From assembly GCA_009833045.1 (NCBI GenBank), contig WUUP01000001.1:49440-113439 (forward strand): DNA of 64,000 nt, written 5' to 3'. Of this stretch, positions 8,525 to 42,070 are shown piece by piece. Both the position numbers and the translations under genes were made by a program. Source of the DNA: Saprospirales bacterium GYS_P2D. Its GTDB lineage: Bacteria > Bacteroidota > Bacteroidia > Chitinophagales > Saprospiraceae. Position 1 is the stretch's first letter. Each line of letters opens with the position of its first letter. Below the pieces are notes generated by a model that saw only the letters and a program-made list of their open reading frames with translations, ran no database searches and had not been told where the DNA came from.

Positions 8525-10552
8525 TTACCTCTTTTGAGGTAGATTATATATTCTTGGTACAAGTGGGCTCACTATATAGTCTTCAAACTCAAGTGTACCA
8601 AGGCATTCGAATATAGCTCCATGCTGTATATCCAGCATATCATCATCCGTCGAGAGTCCGGTAAGACTGCCTGATACTCCTACATAAAACGAAGAGCCAC
8701 TTCTCAAAAGCATCCCATCATCAGACTCCGAATAAATCATTCCCTGATTATCAAATACAACAGCTGTAGAATCTGAAGTCTCTTCCTGCTCGATGCTGTA
8801 TCCACTGATATCTGTCACATTGATATCGCCTGCATTTTCAAAAGTGGACGCATTGTAAATCCCAATATCAGCATACTGAATAAAGATCTCGCCACTATTA
8901 GTCATTACACTTTGGATACCCGGATCAATGGTCAGATTAGCAAATGCGACAGTCTCGTTATCTGCAATATTATTTTTGTATGAATCGATTTTGAAATTAT
9001 CCGGCTCTAAGTTTCCACGGATACCAGATATTACTAAGAATCCTTGGTTATAAAACTCCAGAGAATTGGCTATCCCTGCACTCACTAATGAATAAAGTAC
9101 TAAAGAGTCATTATTAGTGATAGTACCAATATTGGTCATACCAGCACCTTCGCAGTTATAAACTTCAATTTTTCCATCATTCACTATATGCCCCCCATAA
9201 TTGGCCATAGCAGGTGCACCAGTATTGACTATACTGATATCGATCAGCCCCATTGGACTATTGTAGAGACTATCATAGTTGCCTAATGCGAAATGATAGA
9301 CTCTTTCGATAATGAGTGAGTCTTGATTGGTGAAGAGACCAGCATTGAGCAATCCCCCCGCCTCAATATTATTGATCTCAATCTTACCCTCATTGTATAT
9401 TTCAGCATCTGTGGCATTATAGATACCTGATGCCGCAGCAGCTCTACAGTCATAGATAGAGATATAGCCCTCATTACTTACTAAGTGAGCGTTATAGATA
9501 CCATTTCCCATTGCATCTGAGATGAGTAAAGTATCCTGATTATTGAAGCTACCTTCATTCAGCACAGATACTCCTATCTGCGTATTATCAATTTTTATGT
9601 GTCCTTCATTATTAATGCTACCTGTAGTATATATGCCCGCTTCTTCGATGGTATCCATTTGTATATTACCTATGTTATCCAGACTATCCCAGTTCACGAT
9701 ACCGTATGGGCTCATATTCACCATCTCGATGTATCCCAGATTTTGAAGATATCCATTATTGAGTATACCATCGTGTTCACAGTCATGTAGGATGATGGCT
9801 CCCGTATTATGATTGAATATGCTATCAGAATTGGATATGGCGGCTAGGAGTTCATAGACATTAGAGATGATGATACTATCATGATTATGGATCACGGCTG
9901 AGTTATTTACACCATAGTCTCCCGCACTGTCGATGAGTATCACTCCGTGATTAGTGAGATAACTATTAGATAGATTGATCCCACTATTTTGAGAAGAATA
10001 GGCCTCGAGCCTACCATCCTCATCGATATAAAAGGATAATGGTGATCCACTGACGCCAGTACCACAGTCCTCTATGATCAGGCTACCGTCATGGACCACT
10101 GTGGCAGTCGCATAAGAAAAAAGTCCAGTAGCACTGCAGTCTCGGATAGTCAGGACAGATCTATCGAGCGTCTCAATATGACCATGATTGATAATACCTG
10201 AGCCAGTTGATCCGCTAAGTGTGATACGGCCACCATTAGATAATATACCCCTATTAAGTAAGGCGACAGTAATAGCATCGTTAATTCGTAGACGGCCGGG
10301 TATACCACTCATCAGATCTCTTTGTATTTCGAGATTACCAATATTAGTGATCTCCAGATACTTAGCTCGTGCCGTGCTATCAGGCTTGATGAAGGTATAG
10401 CCGCCTATGATCACAGAGTCATTAGCAGTGGGTACTCCCTGCGGTGACCACGCAGTGGGCTCATGCCAATCAAATCCAGGCTGCACGAGGTGCTTGGTCT
10501 GACAGAGGAGGCTGGTTGAGTACATAATCAGCAAGACAATATATTTCAACAT
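8525..10552 (-). CDS. secreted parallel beta-helix repeat protein
   Basis: 675 aa; signal peptide; dozens of degenerate about 20-aa repeats (GIYN.., N.G.I motifs) typical of right-handed beta-helix proteins; no T9SS CTD. Confidence 0.6.
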   Translation of the reverse strand: MLKYIVLLIMYSTSLLCQTKHLVQPGFDWHEPTAWSPQGVPTANDSVIIGGYTFIKPDSTARAKYLEITNIGNLEIQRDLMSGIPGRLRINDAITVALLNRGILSNGGRITLSGSTGSGIINHGHIETLDRSVLTIRDCSATGLFSYATATVVHDGSLIIEDCGTGVSGSPLSFYIDEDGRLEAYSSQNSGINLSNSYLTNHGVILIDSAGDYGVNNSAVIHNHDSIIISNVYELLAAISNSDSIFNHNTGAIILHDCEHDGILNNGYLQNLGYIEMVNMSPYGIVNWDSLDNIGNIQMDTIEEAGIYTTGSINNEGHIKIDNTQIGVSVLNEGSFNNQDTLLISDAMGNGIYNAHLVSNEGYISIYDCRAAAASGIYNATDAEIYNEGKIEINNIEAGGLLNAGLFTNQDSLIIERVYHFALGNYDSLYNSPMGLIDISIVNTGAPAMANYGGHIVNDGKIEVYNCEGAGMTNIGTITNNDSLVLYSLVSAGIANSLEFYNQGFLVISGIRGNLEPDNFKIDSYKNNIADNETVAFANLTIDPGIQSVMTNSGEIFIQYADIGIYNASTFENAGDINVTDISGYSIEQEETSDSTAVVFDNQGMIYSESDDGMLLRSGSSFYVGVSGSLTGLSTDDDMLDIQHGAIFECLGTLEFEDYIVSPLVPRIYNLPQKR

Positions 10553-10582
10553 TCTTTTAATTTTTCTAATGATTAATAAGAC

Positions 10583-13111
10583 TTAATTATCTCCGATGAT
10601 CACCGCACCTTCTCCTGTCTTGAGGACATTTCCTACTCTTTTAGTGATGATCACGGGGCCATCAGTAGGATATGCTCCTGCGTCGATATGCCATGTCTGT
10701 CCATTAGCCTGCTGATCTGCAGCACTCTCTATGTCTTGAAAAGGAGAGGAGAATAATCCATTTTCCACTGGCCCTGGGGCATCTTCATCAACCCACATAT
10801 CTGTACGTATAATATCATCACTGATCCATATCCCCCGACCATAGGTAGTGGCCACCAACTCATGGCCTCCTAAAGTCTTCTGCTGAGTAAATTGTAGTTT
10901 ACTGACCTCAGTAAAGACAGGTCCATCTGAGACATTCATGAAGTTGGGACTGACGTTCCAGTTATTGCCATTATCCTCCGTCGCCATGATGCCGAGATCC
11001 GTAGCTGCGTATAGCCATGAATTTTTAGTAGGATGCCAGACTAAATCATTGACATGAATATTTGCGATTCCATTGTCTCTGATTTCCCATTCTATTTGTG
11101 AGAGGATTAGTCTCATCACATTGAGTCCTATGATCACATTGTCATCTACATATCCGCCTATGGATATGGCTATACGATCACTGATGTTAGGATGTATGGC
11201 GATAGAAGTGATCGGCCGATCTACTGGATGCTGATAGATCTTGATAGCAGGTGCTATAGTAACGCTATCTCCTAAATATCGCCACAGGCTCCCATCAGAG
11301 TATCCTACTAAAGTCATAAATCCATCCTCACTGATAGCTATTGATGACACCTCATAAAATGAATTAGGAGGATTGTCAGGTGTGATATCTGTTACCGTTT
11401 TTTGAAGAGTGGATGTATCAAAGGCGATATGATAGACCCTCTCACCTCCCACTATGATCTGACGACCATCTGTAGGGTTCATAGCCATAGGCGCTATAAA
11501 GGGTGCAGGACTACCCTGCTCATCTTCGAGATCAAAGTAGGGTGCGAAAAGATTTAGATTGCCATGCTTAATTTCAAAATCACCATATTGGCTTGATGCA
11601 TACTGCAGGCGCTCATCTTGTCTGGATATAGCACAATATCCACCATCGCTGTAGGCCACTTTTGACCATGTAGCTCCACTATCATCAGTATAGACCGTAC
11701 CATTGTCTTGGGCTCCTGCTATAATGCGTTGAGGATTGGCACCGTCAATATCACTATCATAGTATTGGGTGATATGTAGTCCATTATTGAGTAGCTCCCA
11801 CTCAGACGTCGTAGTCACGGTAGAATAATTACTCAAAGCGGCGATCCCGCCATCATTACCTACATAGATGCGTTTATTCGCACCACTATAGTCACTGGCA
11901 GCCACTATGACATGCTGATCTGCATGGGCAGAAGAACCCAAATCATTTTGATCATGGTCACTTATAGGTGTCAAATTTGTCTCCCCTATTCGATATCGGT
12001 ATAGATCTATACCGCCTACGACGATCTGATTAGCGTCAAGTGGATCTACCCAAATGACGTTGGCATACCATCCCAGATTGCCTCGAGTAGTACTAAAAAT
12101 ACTCAATCCCGTCAGGACATCACTCCATGACAGTCCTTTGTTATAGCTTATTTTGATAGTCCCAGTAGCAGATCCCTGCAGCAAAGCATAAACCACATTC
12201 GGGTTTGATGGTGCCACGGCTACTTCTACCCTGCCAGATGAGACACCAAAGCCTGCATCCGGCCAGCTATTTCCCCCATCGACTGTATAGCGCAGGCCAT
12301 TCTCTGTGCAGATGAAGATATTGTCTTTATCACCAGGATTGACTACTATGTGGTATATCCTACCGAGTAGAGGTGCGGTATACAATAGTGTTTTAGTAGC
12401 GCCGTAGTTCTCAAATTTCCAAACTTCTCCATCACCACTATTGACTGAGGTCTTAGTTCCATTTTTACCAGCATAAAAGACACTGGGATCCGCACTATCA
12501 AAAGCGATACTTTGGACCCAATAAAAATCGTCAAAATCATCCCCTGATAGAGCCGGCACTAACTCCCAGCTATCCCCACCATCAAATGATCTAAATATTC
12601 CAGCTCCGGGAGTAGAGTTATTGGGATCATTATTAGCCGTGACGGTCTCTCCAGTGGATGCATATAGGGTATCTGGGTGCAGCGGATCTATGAGTATCGT
12701 ACCTATAGATAGACTTGGCAGAAAATCATTAAGAGGCGACCATGATGCTCCACCATTGGTACTTTTCCAGATACCACCACTTGCTGCCCCGCAATATAGT
12801 ATATCAGGATCTGTAGGATGTACGGCCAATGCTCGCACTCTCCCTCCCTCTTCATGTATATCAAGCTGTGTCCAACTACTAAGACCGCCATCTTTGAGCA
12901 TTGTACTTTTAGCGAGTCGCTGTCCAAATAAAGACTTAGCTTTCATGACTTTAGCTGGAGTATCGGTCCTTGCTCTACGCTGAGCTCTCCATTCATCTCT
13001 ACCTATAGGAGAGCTTTCATCTATAGTCTCACTTTGATCTTGGGTAATGAATAGACCTATGCTGACTACAAGAGTTATGAAAGTGATTACTATTGATTTT
13101 CTTCTGTCCAT
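10583..13111 (-). CDS. BNR/Asp-box repeat protein (sortilin/VPS10- or Ycf48/GH74-like beta-propeller), signal-anchored
   Basis: 842 aa; at least 6 Asp-box motifs S/T-x-D/N-x-G-x-S/T-W (STNGGASW, SFDGGDSW, TVDGGNSW, SYNKGLSW, TDDSGATW, TEDNGNNW). Confidence 0.7.
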   Translation of the reverse strand: MDRRKSIVITFITLVVSIGLFITQDQSETIDESSPIGRDEWRAQRRARTDTPAKVMKAKSLFGQRLAKSTMLKDGGLSSWTQLDIHEEGGRVRALAVHPTDPDILYCGAASGGIWKSTNGGASWSPLNDFLPSLSIGTILIDPLHPDTLYASTGETVTANNDPNNSTPGAGIFRSFDGGDSWELVPALSGDDFDDFYWVQSIAFDSADPSVFYAGKNGTKTSVNSGDGEVWKFENYGATKTLLYTAPLLGRIYHIVVNPGDKDNIFICTENGLRYTVDGGNSWPDAGFGVSSGRVEVAVAPSNPNVVYALLQGSATGTIKISYNKGLSWSDVLTGLSIFSTTRGNLGWYANVIWVDPLDANQIVVGGIDLYRYRIGETNLTPISDHDQNDLGSSAHADQHVIVAASDYSGANKRIYVGNDGGIAALSNYSTVTTTSEWELLNNGLHITQYYDSDIDGANPQRIIAGAQDNGTVYTDDSGATWSKVAYSDGGYCAISRQDERLQYASSQYGDFEIKHGNLNLFAPYFDLEDEQGSPAPFIAPMAMNPTDGRQIIVGGERVYHIAFDTSTLQKTVTDITPDNPPNSFYEVSSIAISEDGFMTLVGYSDGSLWRYLGDSVTIAPAIKIYQHPVDRPITSIAIHPNISDRIAISIGGYVDDNVIIGLNVMRLILSQIEWEIRDNGIANIHVNDLVWHPTKNSWLYAATDLGIMATEDNGNNWNVSPNFMNVSDGPVFTEVSKLQFTQQKTLGGHELVATTYGRGIWISDDIIRTDMWVDEDAPGPVENGLFSSPFQDIESAADQQANGQTWHIDAGAYPTDGPVIITKRVGNVLKTGEGAVIIGDN

Positions 13112-25170: not shown

Positions 25171-26184
25171 CTATCTCATGGTATCATGATCTACTATGAT
25201 CATTTTCTTATGTACTTCTTGACCATTAGCGTCTGTGAGGACTACCCAGTAGACACCTTGGGTCAATTCATCCGTATCCATTTTGACCTTTCCCGACTCT
25301 CGAGAAACATTGATCGAGTGTTTCGGTATTTCGTCAAAACCTAACACTTTAATATTCCCTCCTTTTTGAGACGAAAATTCAAAATCTACGTACACATAGT
25401 TATTCTCGACTGCTGGATTAGGAAAAATGGCAAAACTCGGCTTGCCCTTCTTCACTACATCTGCTGCTTTCGCTATAGCGAAATAAGAATATATCGCTAA
25501 ATCTACTGGCTGATCCGAAGTGATAGATCCCTGACTAACTGTACTACGAGCACCACTATAGACAGGTACACTGATATCTGTATCGAGCATAGATATATCC
25601 ACAGTAGCTGGTATAGCCACCCATGACTCCCCGTCAAAGGCTGCAATCGTCAGTTCATCAAGTTCATCCACCATATCAGCCAGATGACTTTTGATTTCCC
25701 AGGTGAGCGTCACTTGCGCTTCACCTGAGCCCGACACACTCCAGTATTCAGTATCACTGAGACGTACGATCTCATTGAGATTCGCCTTAGCTGATATTTC
25801 ATTTGGATCACTGTATGTAAAATCTACTATCACATCCTTAGCCCCGAGAGTAGCCATAGGCCGATACTCTCCGTCATGACCTACAGGATAGACAAAATCT
25901 GTCTTAGTGATATTGCGGATCTTGCCATCTACATAGCCATATGATGTAGCACGACTCCATCTACTCTCACCTGCAAAAGCGAAGTAGCTATCTACTGTCG
26001 AGCGATCTGTATAGACTATGGAGTTCTGACCATTAAAGTCTGTGAAATCATGCTGCCCAAATACGCTCATTTTCCCCTTAGCAGGTAAAACTAACTCTGC
26101 GTGTGCACCAGAAGGTGCCTGAGCACAAAGCATACCTGATATCCCTAAGAGTCCAATAAGCAGCTTATCCTTTATTTTTTTCAT
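25171..26184 (-). CDS. secreted protein with T9SS C-terminal sorting domain
   Basis: 337 aa; signal peptide; C-terminal about 80 aa beta-sandwich CTD pattern (FAIFPNPAVENNYVYVDFEF...GVYWVVLTD..G). Confidence 0.6.
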   Translation of the reverse strand: MKKIKDKLLIGLLGISGMLCAQAPSGAHAELVLPAKGKMSVFGQHDFTDFNGQNSIVYTDRSTVDSYFAFAGESRWSRATSYGYVDGKIRNITKTDFVYPVGHDGEYRPMATLGAKDVIVDFTYSDPNEISAKANLNEIVRLSDTEYWSVSGSGEAQVTLTWEIKSHLADMVDELDELTIAAFDGESWVAIPATVDISMLDTDISVPVYSGARSTVSQGSITSDQPVDLAIYSYFAIAKAADVVKKGKPSFAIFPNPAVENNYVYVDFEFSSQKGGNIKVLGFDEIPKHSINVSRESGKVKMDTDELTQGVYWVVLTDANGQEVHKKMIIVDHDTMR

Positions 26185-26214: not shown

Positions 26215-26241
26215 AGAGAAGGAGCTGTTTACTCCCTCTCT
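26215..26241 (-). terminator. 10-bp hairpin immediately downstream of the collagen-like gene
   Basis: minus strand AGAGAGGGAG-TAAACAG-CTCCTTCTCT (one G-U), followed by moderately T-rich sequence. Confidence 0.3.
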
Positions 26242-26258
26242 TTCATTCTTATGATTTA

Positions 26259-29200
26259 TTAATAAAGGCCTATCATATGGAATCCATAGACATCCGACCA
26301 AGCTTCCTGAGCATCAGTACGTGCCACACTGATAGTAAATCCTGCATTCGTGATAGCACCTATCTGATTGATAGATAGATTCACCATAGCTTTAGCACGA
26401 TCGGTGATGATGCCATACGGATTGACCGCCTGCATGATATAACACATACCTACTGAGTCAACATCAGTGAAGCTGTAGCGCACGATCATAGATGCATGCG
26501 CACCCATATCATCTTTATCTACTAAATCCTCTACGATCCAAGTCACTGTACCGAAGCAACTGTCTTGGAATGTGTCAGAATCACCTACCTGTACATTCTT
26601 CCAAGAAGGAATTGGGAATTGAGATTTTTTAGCTGCTGTGCCAGCATCTCCTTTTTCACCTTTCTCGCCCTGAGGACCTTGTGGGCCTATCGGACCTTGT
26701 GCTCCAGTAGGACCTGCTGGGCCGGTGAGGCCTTGCTCGCCTTGCGGACCAGTGGCACCCTGTGGGCCCGCCGGACCAACTGCACCAGTGGCACCTTGTG
26801 GACCTGCTGGGCCAGTAGCACCTTGAGGGCCTGCTGGACCTTGAGGACCTGTCGCTCCTTGTGGACCCGCTGGGCCTACTTCACCTTGTGGGCCTTGTGG
26901 ACCAGTTGGACCTTGTGCTCCCGCTGCTCCAGTCGCACCTTGCGGACCTGTAGGGCCTTGTGCTCCCGCTATACCTTGTGGGCCTGCTGGACCAACCTCG
27001 CCTTGTGGACCTTGTGGGCCAGTAGCTCCCTGAGGACCTGTAAGACCTTGTGCTCCCTGAGGACCTGCTGGACCTTGTGGGCCTGTCTCGCCTTGTGGAC
27101 CCGCTGGACCAACCTCTCCTTGCAATCCTTGAGGACCTTGTTCTCCTTGAGGACCTACAGGGCCTTGTGCACCAGTAGCTCCTTGTGGGCCTGCTGGGCC
27201 TTCTGGACCAGTCGCTCCCTGAGGGCCCGCTGGTCCAACTTCTCCTTGGAGTCCTTGTGGACCAGTAGCACCAGTTTCGCCTTGTGGGCCTTGTGGACCT
27301 GTGGCGCCTTGTGGACCTGCTGAGCCTTGTGGACCCGTTTCACCTTGTGGGCCCGCTGGGCCAACTTCTCCTTGCAACCCTTGTGGGCCCTGCTCTCCTT
27401 GTGGACCTTGTGCTCCAGTAGCGCCTTGTGGGCCTTGAGCTCCTTGTGCACCAGTAGCGCCTTGTGGGCCTGCTGGACCAACTTCTCCTTGTGGACCCTG
27501 TGGGCCAACTGCTCCTTGAAGGCCTTGTGGACCTGTGGATCCTTGCGGACCCGCTGGACCTTCTGGGCCAGTCTCCCCCTGAGGACCTGCAGGACCGACC
27601 TCTCCTTGAAGTCCTTGTGGACCTTGCTCACCCTGTGGACCTACAGCACCAGTTGCGCCAATCTCTCCCTGTGGACCTTGCGGACCAACTTCACCTTGGA
27701 TACCTTGCTCTCCTTGTGGACCCTGTGGGCCTACAGCACCAGTTGCGCCAATCTCTCCCTGTGGACCTTGCGGACCAACTTCACCTTGGATACCTTGCTC
27801 TCCTTGTGGACCCTGTGGGCCAACTTCTCCTTGAATGCCCAGTGGACCTTGAGGACCAGTGGCGCCCGTAGCACCAGTTTCTCCTTGGATGCCTTGCTCG
27901 CCTTGTGGACCCTGTGGACCAACTTCTCCTTGGAGTCCCTGTGGACCTTGTTCTCCTTGTGGACCTTGAGGACCAACTTCTCCTTGAATTCCCTGTGGGC
28001 CTACTTCACCTTGAGGACCTACAGCACCAGTTGCGCCAGTCTCACCCTGTGGACCTTGAGGGCCAGTGGCACCAGTTTCTCCCTGAGGACCTTGTGGACC
28101 AACTTCACCTTGAAGTCCTTGTGGACCTTGAGGACCAGTGGCGCCCGTAGCACCAGTTTCTCCTTGGATGCCTTGCTCTCCTTGCGGACCCTGTGGACCA
28201 ACTTCACCTTGGATACCTTGCTCTCCTTGTGGACCCTGTGGGCCAACTTCACCTTGAAGTCCCTGTGGACCTTGAGGGCCAGTGGCTCCAGTTTCACCAG
28301 TTTCTCCTTGGATACCCTGCTCTCCTTGTGGACCCTGTGGGCCAACTTCACCTTGAAGTCCCTGTGGACCTTGAGGGCCAGTGGCTCCAGTAGCTCCAGT
28401 TTCACCTTGGATACCTTGATCGCCTTGTGGACCCTGTGGGCCAACTTCACCTTGAAGTCCTTGTGGACCTTGCTCGCCCTGTGGACCTTGCTCGCCCTGT
28501 GGACCTTGCTCTCCTTGTGGACCTTGTGGACCAACTTCACCTTGAAGTCCTTGTGGACCTTGAGGACCAGTGGCTCCTGTAGCTCCCGTTTCACCTTGGA
28601 TACCTTGCTCTCCTTGCGGACCCTGTGGGCCAACTTCACCTTGAAGTCCCTGTGGGCCTTGTTCACCTTGTGGGCCGACAGCGCCAGTGGCACCAGTCTC
28701 GCCTTGCGGACCTTGTGGACCAACTTCTCCTTGAAGTCCTTGTGGACCTTGAGGACCAGTGGCTCCTGTAGCACCAGTTTCTCCTTGGATACCTTGCTCT
28801 CCTTGCGGACCCTGTGGGCCAACTTCACCTTGAAGTCCCTGTGGACCTTGAGGGCCAGTGGCTCCCGTAGCTCCAGTTTCACCTTGGATACCTTGATCGC
28901 CTTGTGGACCCTGTGGGCCAACCTCGCCTTGAATTCCTTGTGGACCTTGCTCACCCTGTGGGCCTTGAGGACCTACAGCGCCAGTGGCACCAGTTGCTCC
29001 AGTCTCGCCTTGCGGACCCTGTGGTCCAACCTCACCTTGAAGTCCTTGTGGACCTTGGGGACCTTGAGGACCTGCGGCCCCTGTAGCACCAGTTTCTCCT
29101 TGGATACCTTGTTCTCCCTGTGGACCCTGCTCACCCTGTGGGCCAACTTCACCTTGGATACCACGCTCTCCTTGTTCACCCTGTGGGCCTTGAGGACCTA

Positions 29201-30917
29201 CTGCACCAGTGGCGCCAGTCTCTCCTTGTGGACCTTGTGGACCAACTTCTCCTTGGATGCCCTGTGGACCTTGTTCTCCCTGTGGGCCTTGAGGACCTAC
29301 TGCACCAGTGGCACCAGTCTCGCCCTGAGGACCCTGTGGACCCTGTGGTCCAACCTCGCCTTGAAGTCCCTGTGGACCTTGAGGACCAGTGGCTCCCGTA
29401 GCTCCAGTTTCTCCTTGCGGACCTTGTGAGCCAACTTCACCTTGGATACCCTGTGGACCTTGTTCTCCTTGTGGGCCGACAGCGCCAGTGGCACCAGTTG
29501 CTCCAGTCTCGCCTTGCGGACCCTGTGGACCTTGAGGACCAGTGGCTCCCGTAGCTCCAGTTTCTCCCTGAGGACCCTGTGGACCAACTTCACCTTGAAG
29601 TCCTTGTGGACCTTGAGGACCCTGTGGGCCTACCTCGCCTTGAAGTCCCTGTGGACCTTGCGGGCCGACTTCTCCTTGAATTCCTTGTGGGCCTTGCTCA
29701 CCTTGAGCGCCAGTCTCGCCTTGTGGGCCTTGCGGTCCTGCAATTCCTTGTGGGCCTTGTGGGCCTGTTGCACCTTGTGATCCTGCAGGACCTTGAGGAC
29801 CAGCTTCCCCTTGAGGACCTACTGGGCCTTGGATTCCTGCGACACCCTGTGGTCCTTGAGGACCTGTAGCTCCTTGTGCTCCAACTGGGCCTTGAGGGCC
29901 GACAGCGCCAGTGGCACCAGTCTCTCCTTGTGGACCCTGTGGGCCAACTTCCCCTTGGATTCCCTGAGGACCTTGCTCCCCTTGCGGGCCTTGAGGACCG
30001 ATAGCACCAGTGGCGCCAGTATCTCCTTGCGGACCTTGTGGGCCAACTTCACCTTGAAGCCCCTGTGGTCCTTGAGCACCAGTGGCGCCAGTAGCACCAG
30101 TTTCTCCTTGAATACCTTGTTCTCCTTGCGGACCCTGTGGTCCAACTTCACCTTGGACACCTTGCGGACCAGTGGCTCCAGTGGCTCCAGTGGCTCCAGT
30201 TGCTCCTATTAATGAAACTAAGAAGTCAGCTTCTGTTCCTTGATTGCCATTTTTCAACCATACCTCATATGCACTTATTCCAGCAGTACCTTGAACACCT
30301 CTTGGTCCCTCAATCCCTTGTGGGCCTGCAGGACCTTGGATACCTTGTTCTCCTTTAGGCCCCTCTGGACCCTGAGCACCTTGAGCACCAGCTACACCCT
30401 GAGGTCCTTGCTCGCCCTGTGGGCCAGCTGGGCCTTGGATACCTTGTGGTCCTTGTTCGCCTTGTGCTCCTGCTGGACCTTGCATGCCACGTGGACCTTC
30501 TGGACCGGCCGGACCTTGCTCACCTTGTGGTCCTTGTGGACCTACAGTACCAGCAGTATCGATACCCATCATTGTCAGCCAAGAATTGTCAATCAAACAA
30601 TCCCAATATGGATCTTCAGGCGGTCCAAGATTCACTTGAACACAGCTCTCAGTGAGATTGAATATTATCGCACCAGTCAATGGTGTCGGTATGAGATCTC
30701 GCTGCTCAGAGGTCATACGTGTAGGCACGAATGCCTGCGTAGTACTCTCGAGCTCGAGAATAGAACCATCATCTATATCGGCAGGGTCCCCTCCCAATTT
30801 TAGCTGCGCAGAAGCTGAAAACGCTAAAAGCAAGCTCATAGATAATAGTAAAACGGATCGTCTAAATCGGCTAATAAGCGCCTGATCAGACGATGTAAAT
30901 AGTAAGTTTTTCGTCAT
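26259..30917 (-). CDS. giant secreted collagen-like (Gly-X-Y triple-helix repeat) protein
   Basis: 1552 aa; signal peptide; about 95-aa N-domain; about 1300 aa of GXY triplets rich in P/Q/E/T/A; 126-aa Cys-containing C-terminal domain; ATG and frame verified. Confidence 0.85.
26642..30545. repeat. coding low-complexity region: about 430 tandem 9-nt (GXY) triplets with higher-order about 90-99-bp periodicity
   Basis: visible as recurring GGxCCxTGxGG units on the plus strand; spawns many spurious ORFs in other frames. Confidence 0.85.
27641..27820. repeat. perfect 2 x 90-bp tandem duplication inside the collagen-like gene
   Basis: 27641-27730 identical to 27731-27820 (ctacagcaccagttgcgccaatctctccctgtggaccttgcggaccaacttcaccttggataccttgctctccttgtggaccctgtgggc); both copies are in-frame 30-aa units. 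Confidence 0.9.
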
Positions 30918-31162: not shown

Positions 31163-31192
31163 AAAAAAAGGCCACCTACTGGCGACCTTTTT
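31163..31192 (-). terminator. weak hairpin flanked by A7/T5 downstream of flotillin gene
   Basis: AAAAAAA-GGCCACCTACTGGCGACC-TTTTT; only a 4-5 bp stem. Confidence 0.3.
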
Positions 31193-31228: not shown

Positions 31229-32773
31229 CTATTCTGACTCTTCCTTAGACTCGACCACTACGCCCTCAGCCGTCTCCTTGCCTAAGTATCCTGGGAGATC
31301 CATACCCGCCATATCGAATAGGTCATTGAGTGGAGGGACAGACTTATAAAGTCCTGAGATAAATTTGGAAGTAGAGTTGCCCCCATCAGCTGACTCCGAT
31401 CCATTTTCCCATACTGTGACCTTATCGATCTTAATATTCTTAATGGCTTCCACCTGCGTCTTAACGAGTTCTGGAAGCTTGTCGGCTATGAGCATAAGTA
31501 CCGCCTCTCGAGGATTACCATTAGTCGCATTCACGATTTGATTGAATCCATCAGCTTGCTTCTTTAGTATTTCAAACATCCCGTCTGCTTCTGCTTTCTT
31601 CTGCAAGAATAAGGCTTCAGCCTCCCCTTTAGCTATTCTTCTTATTTTCTCAGCTTCAGCTTCAGCTTCAATCTCAACTCTTCGTTTTTCGATCTCGGAC
31701 TGGACCAAAACATCTGCCTCCTGAGATGCCTTTTCTTTAGCGGCACGTGCTAATTCTGCAGCCGTCTCTGCCTTGAAGGCCTCTTCAAGGGCATTAGCCT
31801 TTTGAATTTTTTCTGAGGCTGTAGCCAATTTTTCTGCTTCTGCCTCTCGCTGTCTACGCTCAGCATTGGATTTGGCGATCATGATTTGTGCCTCATTCTC
31901 TCCCTCCACAGCTTTTGCTTTGGCACTCGCCTCACCTATTCTGGCTTCTGATTCTGCTTCAGATCTACGGATTCGCTCAAATCTCTGTGCATCAGCTTCA
32001 CCAGCTTCTGCCTCCGAATTAGCCGTAGCTACTTGTATTCTTTGTAATTTCTGAGCTTCGGCTTCACCAATTTGGGCCCGAGAATCTGCCTCTGACACCT
32101 TTACTCTCTGATCCTGCATGGCTTCTGCCTGTCCGATAGCTCCATCTCTGTCTTTCTCAGCGACGCTCTTTTTTGCATCATTTATCGCTTTGGCTGCAGC
32201 CTCCTTACCTAATGCCTCTATATAACCAGACTCATCTTGGATATCAGTGACATTAACATTGATTAGCTCTAAGCCAATTTTTTTAAGTTCTGAGCCGACA
32301 TTTTGAGAAACATTCGAAAGAAATTTATCTCTATCTGCATTAATTTCTTCGATATCCATAGTCGCCACGACCAGCCTCAACTGACCAAAGATGATGTCCT
32401 TCGCATTTTCTCTAATTTCACTGATTGACTTATCCAATAATCTATTGGCAGCATTCTGCATAACACCATCAATTCTGGAGATTGCTACAGTAAACCTGGA
32501 AGGCACGTTCACTCGTATATTTTGTTTACTCAATGCGCCTTGTAAGTCCACGTCTAAAGAGATGGGAGATAAATCCATAAAAGAGTACCCCTGGATGACA
32601 GGCCATACAAATGCCGCTCCACCGGCCACACATTTGGCCGAACCATGACCTGACTTTCCATAAATAACTAAGATTTTGTCGGAAGGACAGATCTTATACC
32701 GACTGATCAATAGCATGACCGCAGCTACGACAATGAAGACTCCTAATCCGATTAAAACAAGAGATAATTCCAT
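31229..32773 (-). CDS. flotillin-like SPFH/band-7 protein (YqiK-type)
   Basis: 514 aa; N-terminal TM, SPFH domain, then about 200 aa of EA-rich coiled coil (AEAEAQKLQR..., EAEAEAEKIRR). Confidence 0.8.
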   Translation of the reverse strand: MELSLVLIGLGVFIVVAAVMLLISRYKICPSDKILVIYGKSGHGSAKCVAGGAAFVWPVIQGYSFMDLSPISLDVDLQGALSKQNIRVNVPSRFTVAISRIDGVMQNAANRLLDKSISEIRENAKDIIFGQLRLVVATMDIEEINADRDKFLSNVSQNVGSELKKIGLELINVNVTDIQDESGYIEALGKEAAAKAINDAKKSVAEKDRDGAIGQAEAMQDQRVKVSEADSRAQIGEAEAQKLQRIQVATANSEAEAGEADAQRFERIRRSEAESEARIGEASAKAKAVEGENEAQIMIAKSNAERRQREAEAEKLATASEKIQKANALEEAFKAETAAELARAAKEKASQEADVLVQSEIEKRRVEIEAEAEAEKIRRIAKGEAEALFLQKKAEADGMFEILKKQADGFNQIVNATNGNPREAVLMLIADKLPELVKTQVEAIKNIKIDKVTVWENGSESADGGNSTSKFISGLYKSVPPLNDLFDMAGMDLPGYLGKETAEGVVVESKEESE

Positions 32774-32849
32774 AGTAATTGATTTTATACGTTTTTATAT
32801 AATAGTGCACTCTCACTGATGAGCGCTATAGATTTTATCAGTGCATGCC

Positions 32850-33413
32850 TTAAATAGGCTCTACGAGCATGACATTCTCACGATCCACATTTTTCACTCG
32901 TACTATAGAGCCTGTCAGTATAGTCGAGTCTGCCGTCACAGCATCAAACTCCATCATCTTACCCTCGACATCCACATGTATTTTGCCGATCCCCTCTTTA
33001 TGACCAGGAATAGTCAAGTAGACTTCTGCCTCTCTCGAGATCGCACTCTTGACATCTACCGTGCCTGACTCTTGAAGCTGTAGCAACTTGAAAAACACGT
33101 AGGCTATAGCTACCATCGCTAAAAATCCGATCAAAAATGCAATCATAAGCGCCTGAGGTGGACGCAGTCCCGATGCCAAAGCTGCCACGCCTCCCCAGCC
33201 AAAGAATACGAAAAAAGCAATCACACTCCTCACGCTGAATACCGAAAAGCCAGTATCTAAATCATCGACATCAAAATCTACATCACTGTCGAGTCCGATC
33301 AAAGTCAATGTCGTCTGGATGATAAAAATCGCAGAAGCGACTATCGCAATACCCCAGTATATCTGCTCAGCGGAAGACAGTGCCTCCCACCATGTTGTGA
33401 TTGATAAGATCAT
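32850..33413 (-). CDS. NfeD-like membrane protein (YqiJ-type partner of flotillin)
   Basis: 187 aa; 3-4 TM helices then C-terminal OB-fold-like soluble domain; directly upstream and co-directional with flotillin. Confidence 0.65.
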   Translation of the reverse strand: MILSITTWWEALSSAEQIYWGIAIVASAIFIIQTTLTLIGLDSDVDFDVDDLDTGFSVFSVRSVIAFFVFFGWGGVAALASGLRPPQALMIAFLIGFLAMVAIAYVFFKLLQLQESGTVDVKSAISREAEVYLTIPGHKEGIGKIHVDVEGKMMEFDAVTADSTILTGSIVRVKNVDRENVMLVEPI

Positions 33414-36353: not shown

Positions 36354-38270
36354 ATGAGCTTGATCGATAATCGGATGGAGAGAAAAAATCACTTCTCAAG
36401 AGGAATTTTACTGGCATTTATGACATTGCTAAGCACGATGCTCACAGCCCAAAAAGTCATCCCAGGAGAATGGATCATCAAATCTACAGATCCTACTTTC
36501 GGCGCCAAGGCAAAAAAGAATAGCCAAATATCTGAAGTGAAATCAATATTTGGAGAATTGGGTCTATATCTCATCGTGACTTCTGAAGAAAGGCCTATAA
36601 ATCAGATCAAGAAGAGCCTCAAATCCACTCAAATAGATGGTGCCTACCCAAATCAACTTATCGAGCCTCGCTATACACCTGACGACCCTGATTTCCCCGG
36701 ACAGTGGGCTGCCACTCAGATAGGCATGCCTGAAATATGGGACGTCACTACAGGAGGTCAGGCGCCCAATGGTGACGATATCGTGGTCGCCATATTTGAC
36801 GATGGATATGACATCACTCATCGAGACTATGCCGACAATATTTGGACCAATGAAGGAGAGATACCTGACGATGGCATAGACAATGACGGCAATGGCTACA
36901 TAGATGACTATCTCGGTTGGAATGCCACTACCGACAATGACGAACATAGAAATCGTACCCATGGCACTGCCGTAGCAGGCATCATCGGCGCTGTCGGGGA
37001 TAATGGTGTCTTAGTAGCTGGGATGAACTGGGACGTAAAACTCATGCTCACCAGCGGAGGTAGAGAAGCAGGATTTAACATAGCGGATATCGTCAGAGCC
37101 TATGAGTATATCTATACTCAGCGCAGAATATACAATGAGACACAGGGCGAATCTGGTGCATATGTCGTCGTATCTAATTATTCTGGAGGCGCTTCGGGAT
37201 TATTTCCTGAGGATTTTCCAAGTTGGTGTGAGATCTATGATTTATTAGGATCAGTGGGAGTGATCAATTTCACCTCGGCCCCTAATGCGGATGTCGATGT
37301 AGACACCGAGGGGGATCTCCCCTCTACCTGCCTATCCGACTATCTGATCATCGTCACCAATACAGACCGACAAGATAATAAGGTACAAGCTGCAGGCTAT
37401 GGTGCACAGAGTGTAGATCTGGGTGCTCCAGGTGATGAGATCTATACCACCGGTCTCAATGGAGAGCTCAATACTTCATTTAGCGGTGCGTCAGCCTCTG
37501 CTCCTGTGGTCGCTGGTGTTGCATCTCTACTCTATAGTGTCATCTGTGATGAAGCATATGAGCTGTCTATCACAGATCCCAGGAGTATCGTCCTCGAGCT
37601 ACGTCGTACATTATTGACCACTGTGAGTCCTGTACCAGAGCTCATAGGTAGATCTACGACTGGAGGTCGCCTCGATGCGGCAGCTGCTTTCGCAGAATGG
37701 CGTAGTATCAAAGGTATCGCTGACTGCTGTAAAGTAGACATCAGTGATCTCACTATCATTGATGAATCCTGCATAGAGGCTACTGACGGTCAGCTAAACA
37801 TTATGACGGATACTACTGATACCCGTAGTGCTCTGAGCTATACACTCTCTCCTATGTCCGGCATGAGTGTATCTAATCGAACCGGTGAATTTAGGTTTCT
37901 GGAAGCCGGAAACTATGAACTAAGCGTGACGACCGATCGTGACATGACCTGTCGGGCAGATACTACATTAAGTATAGCTGCGGGCATTGACGAGTGTAGC
38001 TTTGGAGAGTTTCAGATCAGCGGGATACTGCCTAATCCTACATCGGACTTCATCAATGTCAGTTTCGAGCTTGACGAGTTAAAGCATTTTGAAATTGTCA
38101 TTTTTGACTATGCGAGTCGATTGATCTATCGCAAACCCATCATACCAAGCAGCACCTCAGCTCGATCAGAGCAGATAGATGTATCCGATTTCCCAGATGG
38201 CATCTACTATATCGGCATACGAGCGAATGATTTAGTTGATTTCGTCCCCTTCTCCGTATTTCACCCTTAG
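36354..38270 (+). CDS. subtilisin-like serine peptidase (S8) with T9SS C-terminal sorting domain
   Basis: 638 aa; catalytic triad contexts AIFDDGYD (Asp), HGTAVAGIIGA (His), GASASAPVVAGVASLL (Ser); C-terminal ILPNPTSDFINVSFEL...GIYYIGIRAND CTD. Confidence 0.8.
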   Translation: MSLIDNRMERKNHFSRGILLAFMTLLSTMLTAQKVIPGEWIIKSTDPTFGAKAKKNSQISEVKSIFGELGLYLIVTSEERPINQIKKSLKSTQIDGAYPNQLIEPRYTPDDPDFPGQWAATQIGMPEIWDVTTGGQAPNGDDIVVAIFDDGYDITHRDYADNIWTNEGEIPDDGIDNDGNGYIDDYLGWNATTDNDEHRNRTHGTAVAGIIGAVGDNGVLVAGMNWDVKLMLTSGGREAGFNIADIVRAYEYIYTQRRIYNETQGESGAYVVVSNYSGGASGLFPEDFPSWCEIYDLLGSVGVINFTSAPNADVDVDTEGDLPSTCLSDYLIIVTNTDRQDNKVQAAGYGAQSVDLGAPGDEIYTTGLNGELNTSFSGASASAPVVAGVASLLYSVICDEAYELSITDPRSIVLELRRTLLTTVSPVPELIGRSTTGGRLDAAAAFAEWRSIKGIADCCKVDISDLTIIDESCIEATDGQLNIMTDTTDTRSALSYTLSPMSGMSVSNRTGEFRFLEAGNYELSVTTDRDMTCRADTTLSIAAGIDECSFGEFQISGILPNPTSDFINVSFELDELKHFEIVIFDYASRLIYRKPIIPSSTSARSEQIDVSDFPDGIYYIGIRANDLVDFVPFSVFHP

Positions 38271-40327: not shown

Positions 40328-42070
40328 ATGCACATACGTATCCTAAGATGGGCCACAGCGGGCATCTGCATGCTCATTATTTGGTCATTTTCTGCTAATC
40401 CTCCACAACGCACCACGGGCGCTCCTGGAGAAGGAGGATGTGACAATGCAGGCTGTCATATAGGTGGCGCAGGCATCATCGACGCCACTGTCAATATCAA
40501 AGGTCTCCCCCCTCAAATCCGACCTAATACAGCCTATCAAATCGAAGTAGAAATCATCAAGATCTCGGGACCTGCAGAGCGTGCAGGATTTCAGATGACA
40601 CTTCTCGGAGATGATCAGAGTAGCATAGGGAGCTTCTCCAATAATGGTGAAAACACAGCCATATCCTCTACAGCAGATCGAGAATACTTAGAGCACCAGC
40701 CGGCTCAGTTTTTTAGACAGATGGATACCATACGATATTCATCTCTATGGAGTCTTGATGAGGAAACTAATAGTGACTCCATCTATCTCTACCTCGGCGC
40801 TAACATTGCCAATGGCAATAACAATCGATCAGGAGATCTGCCACTTTTTGCTCGGCAGTCTTATGCCATCACACAGGATACAGGGATACTAATAAGCGCT
40901 ACCATCGAAGATTCTGGCTGTGAAGAAGCGAATGGATCTATAGTCGTAGCAATAAGTGGGGGGCTGCCGCCCTACTCTATCACTTGGAGTACGGGGGATA
41001 CAACACTATCCATTTCAGATTTACCAGTTGGCAGCTATGATGTAACGGTAGTCGACGCAAATGAGGATAGTCTATCAGAGGCATTTATGGTTGGAGCCCA
41101 AGTAGATACAGTTTCTCCTATAATATTTTGTACTGCAGATACATTCTATATATCTACATGTGCCCCCTTCAGCTATAGCGTACCTACTGCGACAGATGAC
41201 TGTGGAGATGTTGATATAAGGCTCCTATCAGGCCGGGGTATCAATCAACCCTACCCCGTCGGTCTATCTGTCGAAATATACGAAGCTACTGACGCTTCTG
41301 GTAATAAGAGTCAGTGCTCAATCTATATCAATAATCAACCAGAGATCACATCCACAATAAATGTCATCCAACCGCAGTGTCACAATGACTCGATAGGCTT
41401 CATAGATCTTGAGATCACGGGTAGCAATCCTCCCTATGAGATCTCAAGCGAACTCTTAGGTGAAGACAATAGTCTACCAAAAGGTGTACATACCATCACA
41501 ATATCAGACGCCTCTGGCTGCAGCTTTACAGAGACAGTCGAAATCATAAGACCGCAAGAACTCAATCTGACTATCGATAGTGTAAATGATAACACAAATA
41601 GCGATGATGGCAATGGGCAAATACTCATCAGTGTCACGGGCGGTGTCATGCCATACGAGTATAGCTGGACGATAAATGGGCAGTTCTTCTCTGATGAGTC
41701 CGATCTGACTGGTTTATTCAGCGGTGTATATCAGCTCACAGTCAGTGATAGCTATGGCTGTCTAATAGTTTCTGACACTGTCTTAGTCGACTTAGTGTCA
41801 TCCATCTATGATCCACAGCTGAGCGCTACATTCACTTTATTTCCTAACCCCTCCAATGATCAAAAGGAAGTGTTCCTAACTTCTCCTATCTTAAATCAGG
41901 TAACATCTATAGAGCTCTTTGATCTATTGGGTCAATCTGTGCTGACGAATAAGTTTCAAAGCAAGCAAGATAAGCTCGCAATCAGCCTTACTAATATTCA
42001 CGAAGGACTACATTACATGAAAATCACACTCAGTGATGATCGCCATGTCATACTACCTCTGGTTCATTAA
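40328..42070 (+). CDS. secreted SprB-repeat/HYR-like adhesin-type protein with T9SS C-terminal domain
   Basis: 580 aa; three GG.(M/P)PY.Y.W SprB-type repeats, DDCGDV HYR-like segment, C-terminal FTLFPNPSNDQKEVFL...GLHYMKITL CTD; N-terminal CDNAGCH motif. Confidence 0.6.
   Translation: MHIRILRWATAGICMLIIWSFSANPPQRTTGAPGEGGCDNAGCHIGGAGIIDATVNIKGLPPQIRPNTAYQIEVEIIKISGPAERAGFQMTLLGDDQSSIGSFSNNGENTAISSTADREYLEHQPAQFFRQMDTIRYSSLWSLDEETNSDSIYLYLGANIANGNNNRSGDLPLFARQSYAITQDTGILISATIEDSGCEEANGSIVVAISGGLPPYSITWSTGDTTLSISDLPVGSYDVTVVDANEDSLSEAFMVGAQVDTVSPIIFCTADTFYISTCAPFSYSVPTATDDCGDVDIRLLSGRGINQPYPVGLSVEIYEATDASGNKSQCSIYINNQPEITSTINVIQPQCHNDSIGFIDLEITGSNPPYEISSELLGEDNSLPKGVHTITISDASGCSFTETVEIIRPQELNLTIDSVNDNTNSDDGNGQILISVTGGVMPYEYSWTINGQFFSDESDLTGLFSGVYQLTVSDSYGCLIVSDTVLVDLVSSIYDPQLSATFTLFPNPSNDQKEVFLTSPILNQVTSIELFDLLGQSVLTNKFQSKQDKLAISLTNIHEGLHYMKITLSDDRHVILPLVH

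Follow-up and report, generated by a model that had tools for sequence, protein, structure and literature searches.

A beta-sandwich domain at the C-terminus of a Saprospiraceae collagen-like protein family as candidate head of a trimeric surface fibre

We analysed a 64,000-nucleotide stretch of the genome of Saprospirales bacterium GYS_P2D (contig WUUP01000001.1, positions 49,440 to 113,439; hereafter the window), in which a 1552-residue open reading frame (ORF) at 26259..30917 on the minus strand encodes a collagen-like protein with a non-repetitive C-terminal domain (CTD). The CTD proved to be the conserved, strictly C-terminal part of a family of proteins that combine an N-terminal domain (N-domain), a collagen stalk and the CTD in this order, and whose genes are followed by an obligatory partner gene encoding a type IX secretion system (T9SS) substrate. 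In the reading that we favour, with a probability of about 0.5, the CTD is the globular C-terminal head of a trimeric surface fibre with a collagen stalk. It most likely forms the trimeric tip of that fibre, rather than its sole trimerisation module or its anchor.

The C-terminal domain and its predicted fold

The ORF holds 428 Gly-X-Y triplets (1284 residues, by a regular-expression count), and 124 non-repetitive residues follow the last of them. A profile of the CTD family matches aa 1430-1552 (hmm positions 1-118), which places the domain, 123 residues long, at 26262..26630 on the minus strand. The first-pass annotation of the window had described a compact, non-repetitive C-terminal domain with two Cys residues, and the ORF does end as quoted there, with the Cys at aa 1454 and 1492. 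Its interval, 26262..26641, located the domain correctly, but the left boundary was 11 nt too generous and took in three to four linker residues.

Relatives of the CTD were recovered by an exhaustive HMMER scan alone; neither a word-index homologue search nor a scan of genome contigs with the single CTD sequence returned any. Comparison with 1.84e9 representative proteins using phmmer gave 14 matches (E from 1.6e-18 to 5.7e-4), all of which are short metagenomic fragments. The family profile matched the domain in further collagen genes, again at the C-terminus (E from 1e-23 to 1e-48), and in every homologue it ends at most 3 residues (0-3) from the stop codon. The CTD and the N-domain were both looked for in 2.9 million viral contigs, and neither was found with the patterns used. 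The low count of the family (14 representatives) probably reflects an artefact of assembling genes as repetitive as those for collagen. Short-read assemblies are interrupted within the repeats, which leaves the family almost invisible in protein databases, and with contigs ending within collagen the fibre genes are systematically truncated in these databases or absent from them. Most of the contigs carrying the N-domain (Saprospiraceae metagenome-assembled genomes (MAGs), loci L009-L046) stop a few hundred bases into the repeats, and the window fibre protein itself was not retrieved by the word-index search.

No family in Pfam-A, NCBIfam or PHROG matched the CTD at E≤10 in hmmscan, and comparison with all PDB sequences, by phmmer and with the family profile, gave nothing meaningful. 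The domain is thus uncharacterised, as had been proposed. We modelled the CTD as a monomer with AlphaFold2 (AF2), using an alignment of 13 sequences, all from the family. The predicted local distance difference test (pLDDT) score of the model was 91.6 and its predicted template modelling (pTM) score 0.85, and all five models scored 87 or more; a prediction made without an alignment was not usable (pLDDT 53.6). The confident model is compact and consists of eight beta-strands and one short helix. A Foldseek search of PDB and BFVD with the model returned nothing at E≤1e-3, all fold scores being sub-significant. The sole PDB matches at a probability above 0.8 were the C-terminus of the R1 pyocin fibre and Helix aspersa agglutinin, the BFVD list was made up mostly of phage tail-fibre tips, and none of the matches was a C1q, TNF, BclA or T9SS sorting-domain chain. 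According to this model, the CTD is a predicted beta-sandwich without a close solved relative, and it resembles trimeric, lectin-like fibre tips weakly but repeatedly, which we treat as a lead and not as a classification.

Cys residues in the CTD family are gained and lost in pairs: the window-type pair, C25/C63, occurs in 6 sequences, and all five members of another subclade carry an alternative pair located on two other strands. This pattern fits disulfides in an extracytoplasmic, exported domain. Invariant residues of the CTD are Q67, N70, R104, D106, W111 and F117.

Several known classes of C-terminal domains were considered and rejected. For a C1q/TNF-like globular head (gC1q, BclA type), there was no match to a sequence family and no Foldseek chain. 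The DUF1566 domain of the Lcl type (PF07603) did not match the all-beta CTD, and the NCBIfam adhesin_Lcl model aligned to the collagen part only, with 87.6 bits against a 500-bit cut-off. By sequence, the CTD did not match H-type lectins (no Pfam family at E≤10), and the Peptidase_S74 chaperone (PF13884) gave no match. A sortase-anchored collagen adhesin of the Scl1/Scl2 kind was dismissed since the last 130 residues contain no LPXTG motif; the SclA and SclB models aligned to collagen alone, with 64-81 bits against cut-offs of 325-400. T9SS sorting domains span ~70-100 residues. The models for type A (TIGR04183/PF18962), type B and type C (NF033708) did not match the CTD at E≤10; sorting-domain models in the same libraries do match the neighbouring 337-aa protein, so they work on this genome. 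PMC11285876 describes the sorting-domain fold as a seven-strand (3+4) immunoglobulin-like beta-sandwich, which the CTD, with 123 aa and eight strands in the AF2 model, does not fit. The absence of likeness to T9SS sorting domains and LPXTG motifs, remarked on in the first-pass annotation, was therefore confirmed, and the CTD belongs to none of the head families tested (C1q/TNF, DUF1566, Peptidase_S74, LPXTG and T9SS sorting).

Family architecture and the conserved N-terminal domain

An alignment of the N-domain was scanned over 185,579 species genomes and gave 46 loci, nearly all of them in Saprospiraceae MAGs. All eight complete genes encode the same succession of signal peptide, N-domain, collagen stalk and CTD, in proteins of very different length: 1552 aa in the window, 2819 aa in L015, 1434 aa in L033, 972 aa in L020, 944 aa in L046, 845 aa in L057, 748 aa in L022 and 562 aa in L045. 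Two further genes, in L030 and L032, encode more than 3300 aa each and extend past the fetched locus. The stalks range from 237 to more than 3100 Gly-X-Y (GXY) residues; that of L030, with more than 3100, is to our knowledge among the longest prokaryotic collagen stalks. The CTD and the collagen rod had been suggested to constitute an undescribed fibre class, and they do define a recurrent family of which we found no description: our literature searches turned up nothing relevant on Saprospiraceae collagen fibres or on collagen-like proteins with T9SS.

In the window protein, the N-domain covers aa 38-122 (30552..30806, minus strand) and begins with QLKLGGDP; that of all relatives begins directly after ...AQ. 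Six homologues (P0018-P0023, 63-92% identical) bear the precomputed Pfam label PF26696 'PTL_trimer', and judging by this similarity the window N-domain very likely belongs to the same family. Searches of PDB sequences with the profiles of the CTD, the N-domain and the partner gave, taken together, chance or sorting-domain matches only. Among the seven complete loci compared, the N-domains shared a mean pairwise identity of 70%, against 38% both for the CTD and for the N-terminal region of the partner. The much stronger conservation of the N-domain relative to the CTD is what a conserved base with a diverging tip would show.

Collagen precedes the CTD in 17 of 19 informative independent copies, five further copies being fragments too short to place. 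The co-occurrence with collagen in other Bacteroidota, for which a check had been proposed, was thus observed. Most of the homologues that seem short proved to be 3' ends of collagen genes, the rest having been lost to contig ends or to frameshifts in the assembly (L001, L003, L004/L005, L006 and L056). Occurrence of the CTD without collagen, also raised earlier, is limited to two genuine stand-alone genes, L055 and L002, of which L055 (P0005) encodes 151 aa comprising a signal peptide and the CTD. The stand-alone genes indicate that the CTD has a function of its own beyond registration of the triple helix, and the secreted form in L055 points to an autonomous, probably binding, function.

The junction between the last triple-helix Gly and the first strand of the CTD (26631..26645, minus strand, read by eye) has a fixed length. 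In the window protein, P0001, P0002, P0008, P0014, L004, L006, L045, L046 and L057, inspection by eye showed a constant spacing from the last collagen Gly to a conserved IP motif (G-[ILFT]-x4-[GS]-x-F-x-IP). Such an invariant short junction, the strict C-terminal position of the CTD and its preceding collagen in 17 of 19 copies could also be explained if the domain were purely a folding device, i.e. a C-terminal nucleus for trimerisation and registration, with the long helix zipping up from there, and had no binding function. A registration device is plausibly needed in helices this long (237 to more than 3100 GXY residues), and precedents are provided by the NC1 and C-propeptide domains of animal collagens and by PfC of E. 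coli prophage collagens. C-terminal trimerisation domains of prophage collagen-like proteins are documented in PMC3368898. We nevertheless regard this explanation as unlikely. The N-domain is present in all eight complete genes and carries, on its homologues, a label that by its name alone denotes a trimer, so the CTD need not be the trimerisation module, and the earlier proposal that it nucleates the helix is weakened. In addition, collagen-free CTD genes, of which one also encodes a signal peptide, would be pointless for a pure registration nucleus, and divergence as fast as that of the CTD is unusual for a purely structural one; the stand-alone secreted CTD argues against a pure registration module.

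The same secreted CTD bears on a second alternative, in which the domain would be a new class of C-terminal signal for secretion across the outer membrane in Bacteroidota, e.g. an unrecognised T9SS sorting domain. Like T9SS sorting domains, the CTD lies at the extreme C-terminus of every member, its predicted fold is a beta-sandwich, and it is restricted to Bacteroidota; the organism uses T9SS, and no other export signal is recognisable in the fibre. However, a signal secreted without cargo, as it would be in L055, is hard to reconcile with such a role, and we consider it very improbable.

The stalks of most relatives contain 2-21 copies of a 28-aa, Cys-bounded insert rich in Asp and Asn (CWDxNGNGxxDxxEDxNGDGxFNxLDCQ), which looks like a calcium-binding loop of the thrombospondin type-3 or dockerin-like kind as far as its residues indicate. 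It was found in L015, L020, L030, L032, L033, L045, L046 and L059, and is absent from the window protein; the end of the window N-domain resembles the start of this insert.

In Flavobacteriia, relatives of the N-domain bear other trimeric modules in place of collagen and the CTD, namely YadA_head repeats and, in L049, the Peptidase_S74 tail-spike chaperone (E=2.2e-18). The Flavobacterium loci L051, L053 and L054 contain tandem genes (at ~9200-10650 of each locus) for proteins of 240-280 aa that consist of a signal peptide, the N-domain and a beta-domain of ~145 aa. This ~145-aa head is unrelated to the CTD (hhalign probability 0.2%). Its profile matched TNF-superfamily ligands (GITRL) in PDB weakly (E 0.13-0.35), and it may be a TNF/C1q-like head on an N-domain base.

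The partner gene and the orientation of the fibre

Directly downstream of the fibre gene, at 25171..26184 on the minus strand, lies the partner gene. It encodes 337 aa, with a signal peptide, an N-terminal domain of ~230 aa (aa 22-250) and a type-A T9SS sorting domain at aa 253-330 (PF18962, E=4.5e-7; TIGR04183, E=6.2e-6). The ~230-aa region has no family or PDB match, and its conserved motifs are GYVDGxV...F.FP.G..G.Y.P and EYWDV. A partner homologue directly follows the CTD gene in all 13 collagen-CTD loci for which downstream DNA is available (the window, L001, L004, L006, L015, L020, L022, L033, L045, L046, L056, L057 and L059), and L005 adds a partial copy. In tblastn the homologues reached E values between 1e-23 and 1e-44, and profile matches went down to 1e-115. 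Beyond the fibre and the partner, no conserved neighbours were found across the loci.

In Flavobacteriia (L052, L050 and L047), the N-terminal domain of the partner adjoins N-domain genes that lack the CTD, and no partner lies near the stand-alone CTD genes L002 and L055. Since the partner accompanies N-domain genes without the CTD and is missing beside lone CTDs, the arrangement suggests a conserved base at the N-terminus and a distal head in the CTD. A partner-related domain also heads far larger T9SS proteins in Flavobacteriia, of 823 aa in L052 and more than 2700 aa in L047. The anchoring role that had been suggested for the CTD is unlikely, because the conserved end of the protein (70% versus 38% identity) and the element that tracks the partner are both the N-domain.

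The opposite orientation was also weighed. The CTD could be the cell-proximal end, docked on the surface-attached partner after removal of the sorting domain of the latter, so that the partner would anchor or export the fibre. In all 13 loci the partner comes directly after the 3' end that encodes the CTD, fibre and partner are the only genes conserved across them, CTD and partner diverge at equal rates, and the fibre lacks an export or anchor signal of its own, all of which would suit this arrangement. It is unlikely in our judgement, as partner-type domains occur beside CTD-less N-domain proteins and not near the two stand-alone CTD genes. Correlations of pairwise identities do not favour a CTD-partner link either (rho 0.40 for CTD-partner versus 0.38 for N-domain-partner; both are non-significant, and the comparison is uninformative), and profile comparison with hhalign found no relation of the partner to the CTD or the N-domain, and no shared domain.

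For the CTD as distal head, the following course of events can be envisaged. Sec would export the fibre protein, three chains would associate, and the ~1284-residue Gly-X-Y region would form the triple helix. With a triple-helix rise of ~0.29 nm per residue, the stalk of the window protein would be ~0.35-0.4 µm long. The N-domain, together with the T9SS-secreted partner, would make up the conserved cell-proximal base. At the far end, three CTDs might pack round the helix axis, each joined to the last triplet by the short linker of invariant length. As a three-fold knob they would cap the helix and keep it in register, and their lectin-like surface would bind a target, for instance a glycan on algae, bacteria or particles. 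In this scheme, we infer the distal position of the CTD, its ligand binding, the role of the partner and the location of the fibre at the surface.

Several points weigh against this reading. We also infer the trimeric state of the CTD, and no ligand-binding motif was identified in the domain. No outer-membrane signal, be it for export or for anchoring, can be recognised in the fibre, which makes even its surface location putative. The equal rates at which the CTD and the partner diverge (38% each) would also fit an interaction between these two. Finally, the meaning of 'PTL_trimer' was taken from the name alone, no paper describing the family having been found.

More speculatively, the two genes could form a fibre-display module in which the N-domain binds a dedicated T9SS cargo as an adaptor, and which would put fibres of ~0.1 to ~1 µm with a previously undescribed lectin-like trimeric head on the cell; we hold this to be a tentative possibility. 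If true, it would represent an undescribed hitch-hiking or adaptor mode of T9SS-dependent fibre display, and the CTD would be a new fold family of collagen-capping heads. Several proteins with Por_Secre_tail domains are encoded within the window. Two large secreted proteins, at 36354..38270 and 40328..42070 on the plus strand, have T9SS-like C-termini by eye, and one of them is apparently a subtilisin-like protease; they would fit an active T9SS in the organism.

Comparison with known fibres and genomic context

Bacterial collagen-like fibres with globular heads are already known, namely BclA, Lcl, Scl and phage fibres. BclA of the Bacillus anthracis exosporium and C1q/collectins follow the same logic as the window protein, in that an N-terminal region serves for attachment, a Gly-X-Y helix that varies in length comes next and an all-beta head ends the chain; in the BclA/C1q-type layout this globular trimeric head is a compact domain of ~120-135 aa at the extreme C-terminus. 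What sets the Saprospiraceae family apart is a head without detectable relatives in curated families or solved structures, the great length of the stalk and the invariable pairing with a T9SS cargo gene. Saprospiraceae live attached to surfaces and abound in marine and wastewater habitats, which makes the fibre a candidate attachment organelle. The head with a short collagen stub could also serve as a compact candidate capping or registration module for engineered bacterial collagens.

Lcl of Legionella is a surface collagen-like protein whose C-terminal domain forms a trimer that binds carbohydrate (glycosaminoglycans), and its homologues were reported in the FCB superphylum (PMC11162425). 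It shares with the window protein the layout of a Gram-negative collagen-like protein with a C-terminal domain; however, the Lcl-CTD has the alpha/beta C-type-lectin-like fold of DUF1566 (PMC11162425), whereas the window CTD is predicted to be all-beta and contains no DUF1566, and Lcl leaves the cell by type II secretion. A base conserved at the N-terminus, a trimeric stalk and, at the C-terminus, a variable receptor-binding tip make up the fibres of phage tails and R-type pyocins, among them the collagen-like side-tail proteins of E. coli O157 prophages (PMC3368898). The likenesses of our family to them are the motif in the collagen interruption described below, the sub-significant Foldseek match to R1 pyocin and Peptidase_S74 in relatives of the N-domain; the window gene differs in being chromosomal, in a housekeeping context and with no phage genes nearby. 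For H-type lectins (Helix pomatia and Helix aspersa agglutinins, the C-terminal domain of discoidin, SLL-2), the fold comparison gave the match to Helix aspersa agglutinin, at a Foldseek probability above 0.8 but with a sub-significant score. The mosaic adhesive trimer (MAT) fibres of Bdellovibrio (PMC10769870) are an analogous family of chromosomally encoded trimers, in which the N-terminal part is conserved and the C-terminal tips, which recognise targets, are swapped. They come from another phylum, and their stalk is not collagen and their tip folds are different; the analogy implies no homology.

The remaining features of the fibre gene, all on the minus strand, are as follows. A Sec signal peptide is predicted at aa 1-37 (30807..30917; ...LLLAFSASA / QLK), on the basis of a basic n-region, a hydrophobic core and A-x-A ahead of Gln, read by eye. 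Collagen block 1 (aa 123-215, 31 triplets, 30273..30551) and block 2 (aa 238-1428, 397 triplets, 26634..30206) have mostly P, E or A at X and mostly Q, T or V at Y, and the protein belongs to PF01391 Collagen (E=1.8e-23 for the first 282 aa). The blocks are separated by the sole interruption of the collagen region, 22 residues at aa 216-237 (30207..30272), which matches PHROG tail and tail-fibre families with E from 6.5e-6 to 1e-2, the two best at 6.5e-6 and 1.7e-5. It looks like a kink or registration motif derived from a tail fibre, as far as these matches indicate. In L003, the CTD is preceded by one or two motifs similar to it. Spurious long ORFs of up to 700 aa in other frames and on the opposite strand overlap the collagen gene (window 26565..30212). 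These ORFs arise as a side effect of the GC-rich triplet repeat, and annotating them as genes would be wrong.

A consensus scan located a terminator-like hairpin between the fibre and partner genes (26215..26241, minus strand; 11-pair stem, tail ACCATTTCTT) and a second one at 31165..31192 (minus strand), just upstream of the 5' region of the fibre gene and after a flotillin gene. Because hairpins flank the fibre gene on both sides, the gene may be transcribed as a unit by itself, from which read-through would reach the partner; the evidence is weak, as the scan found no more terminator-like sites in the region than expected from shuffling. Directly upstream of the fibre gene, at 31229..33413 on the minus strand, are genes for a flotillin-like (Band_7) protein of 514 aa and a membrane protein of 187 aa. 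No link of this pair to the fibre was seen in more distant loci. The same arrangement recurs in L008, a related contig, and synteny of the flanks was seen in L009-L014; the window flanks are syntenic with several of the N-domain loci at 68-79% nucleotide identity.

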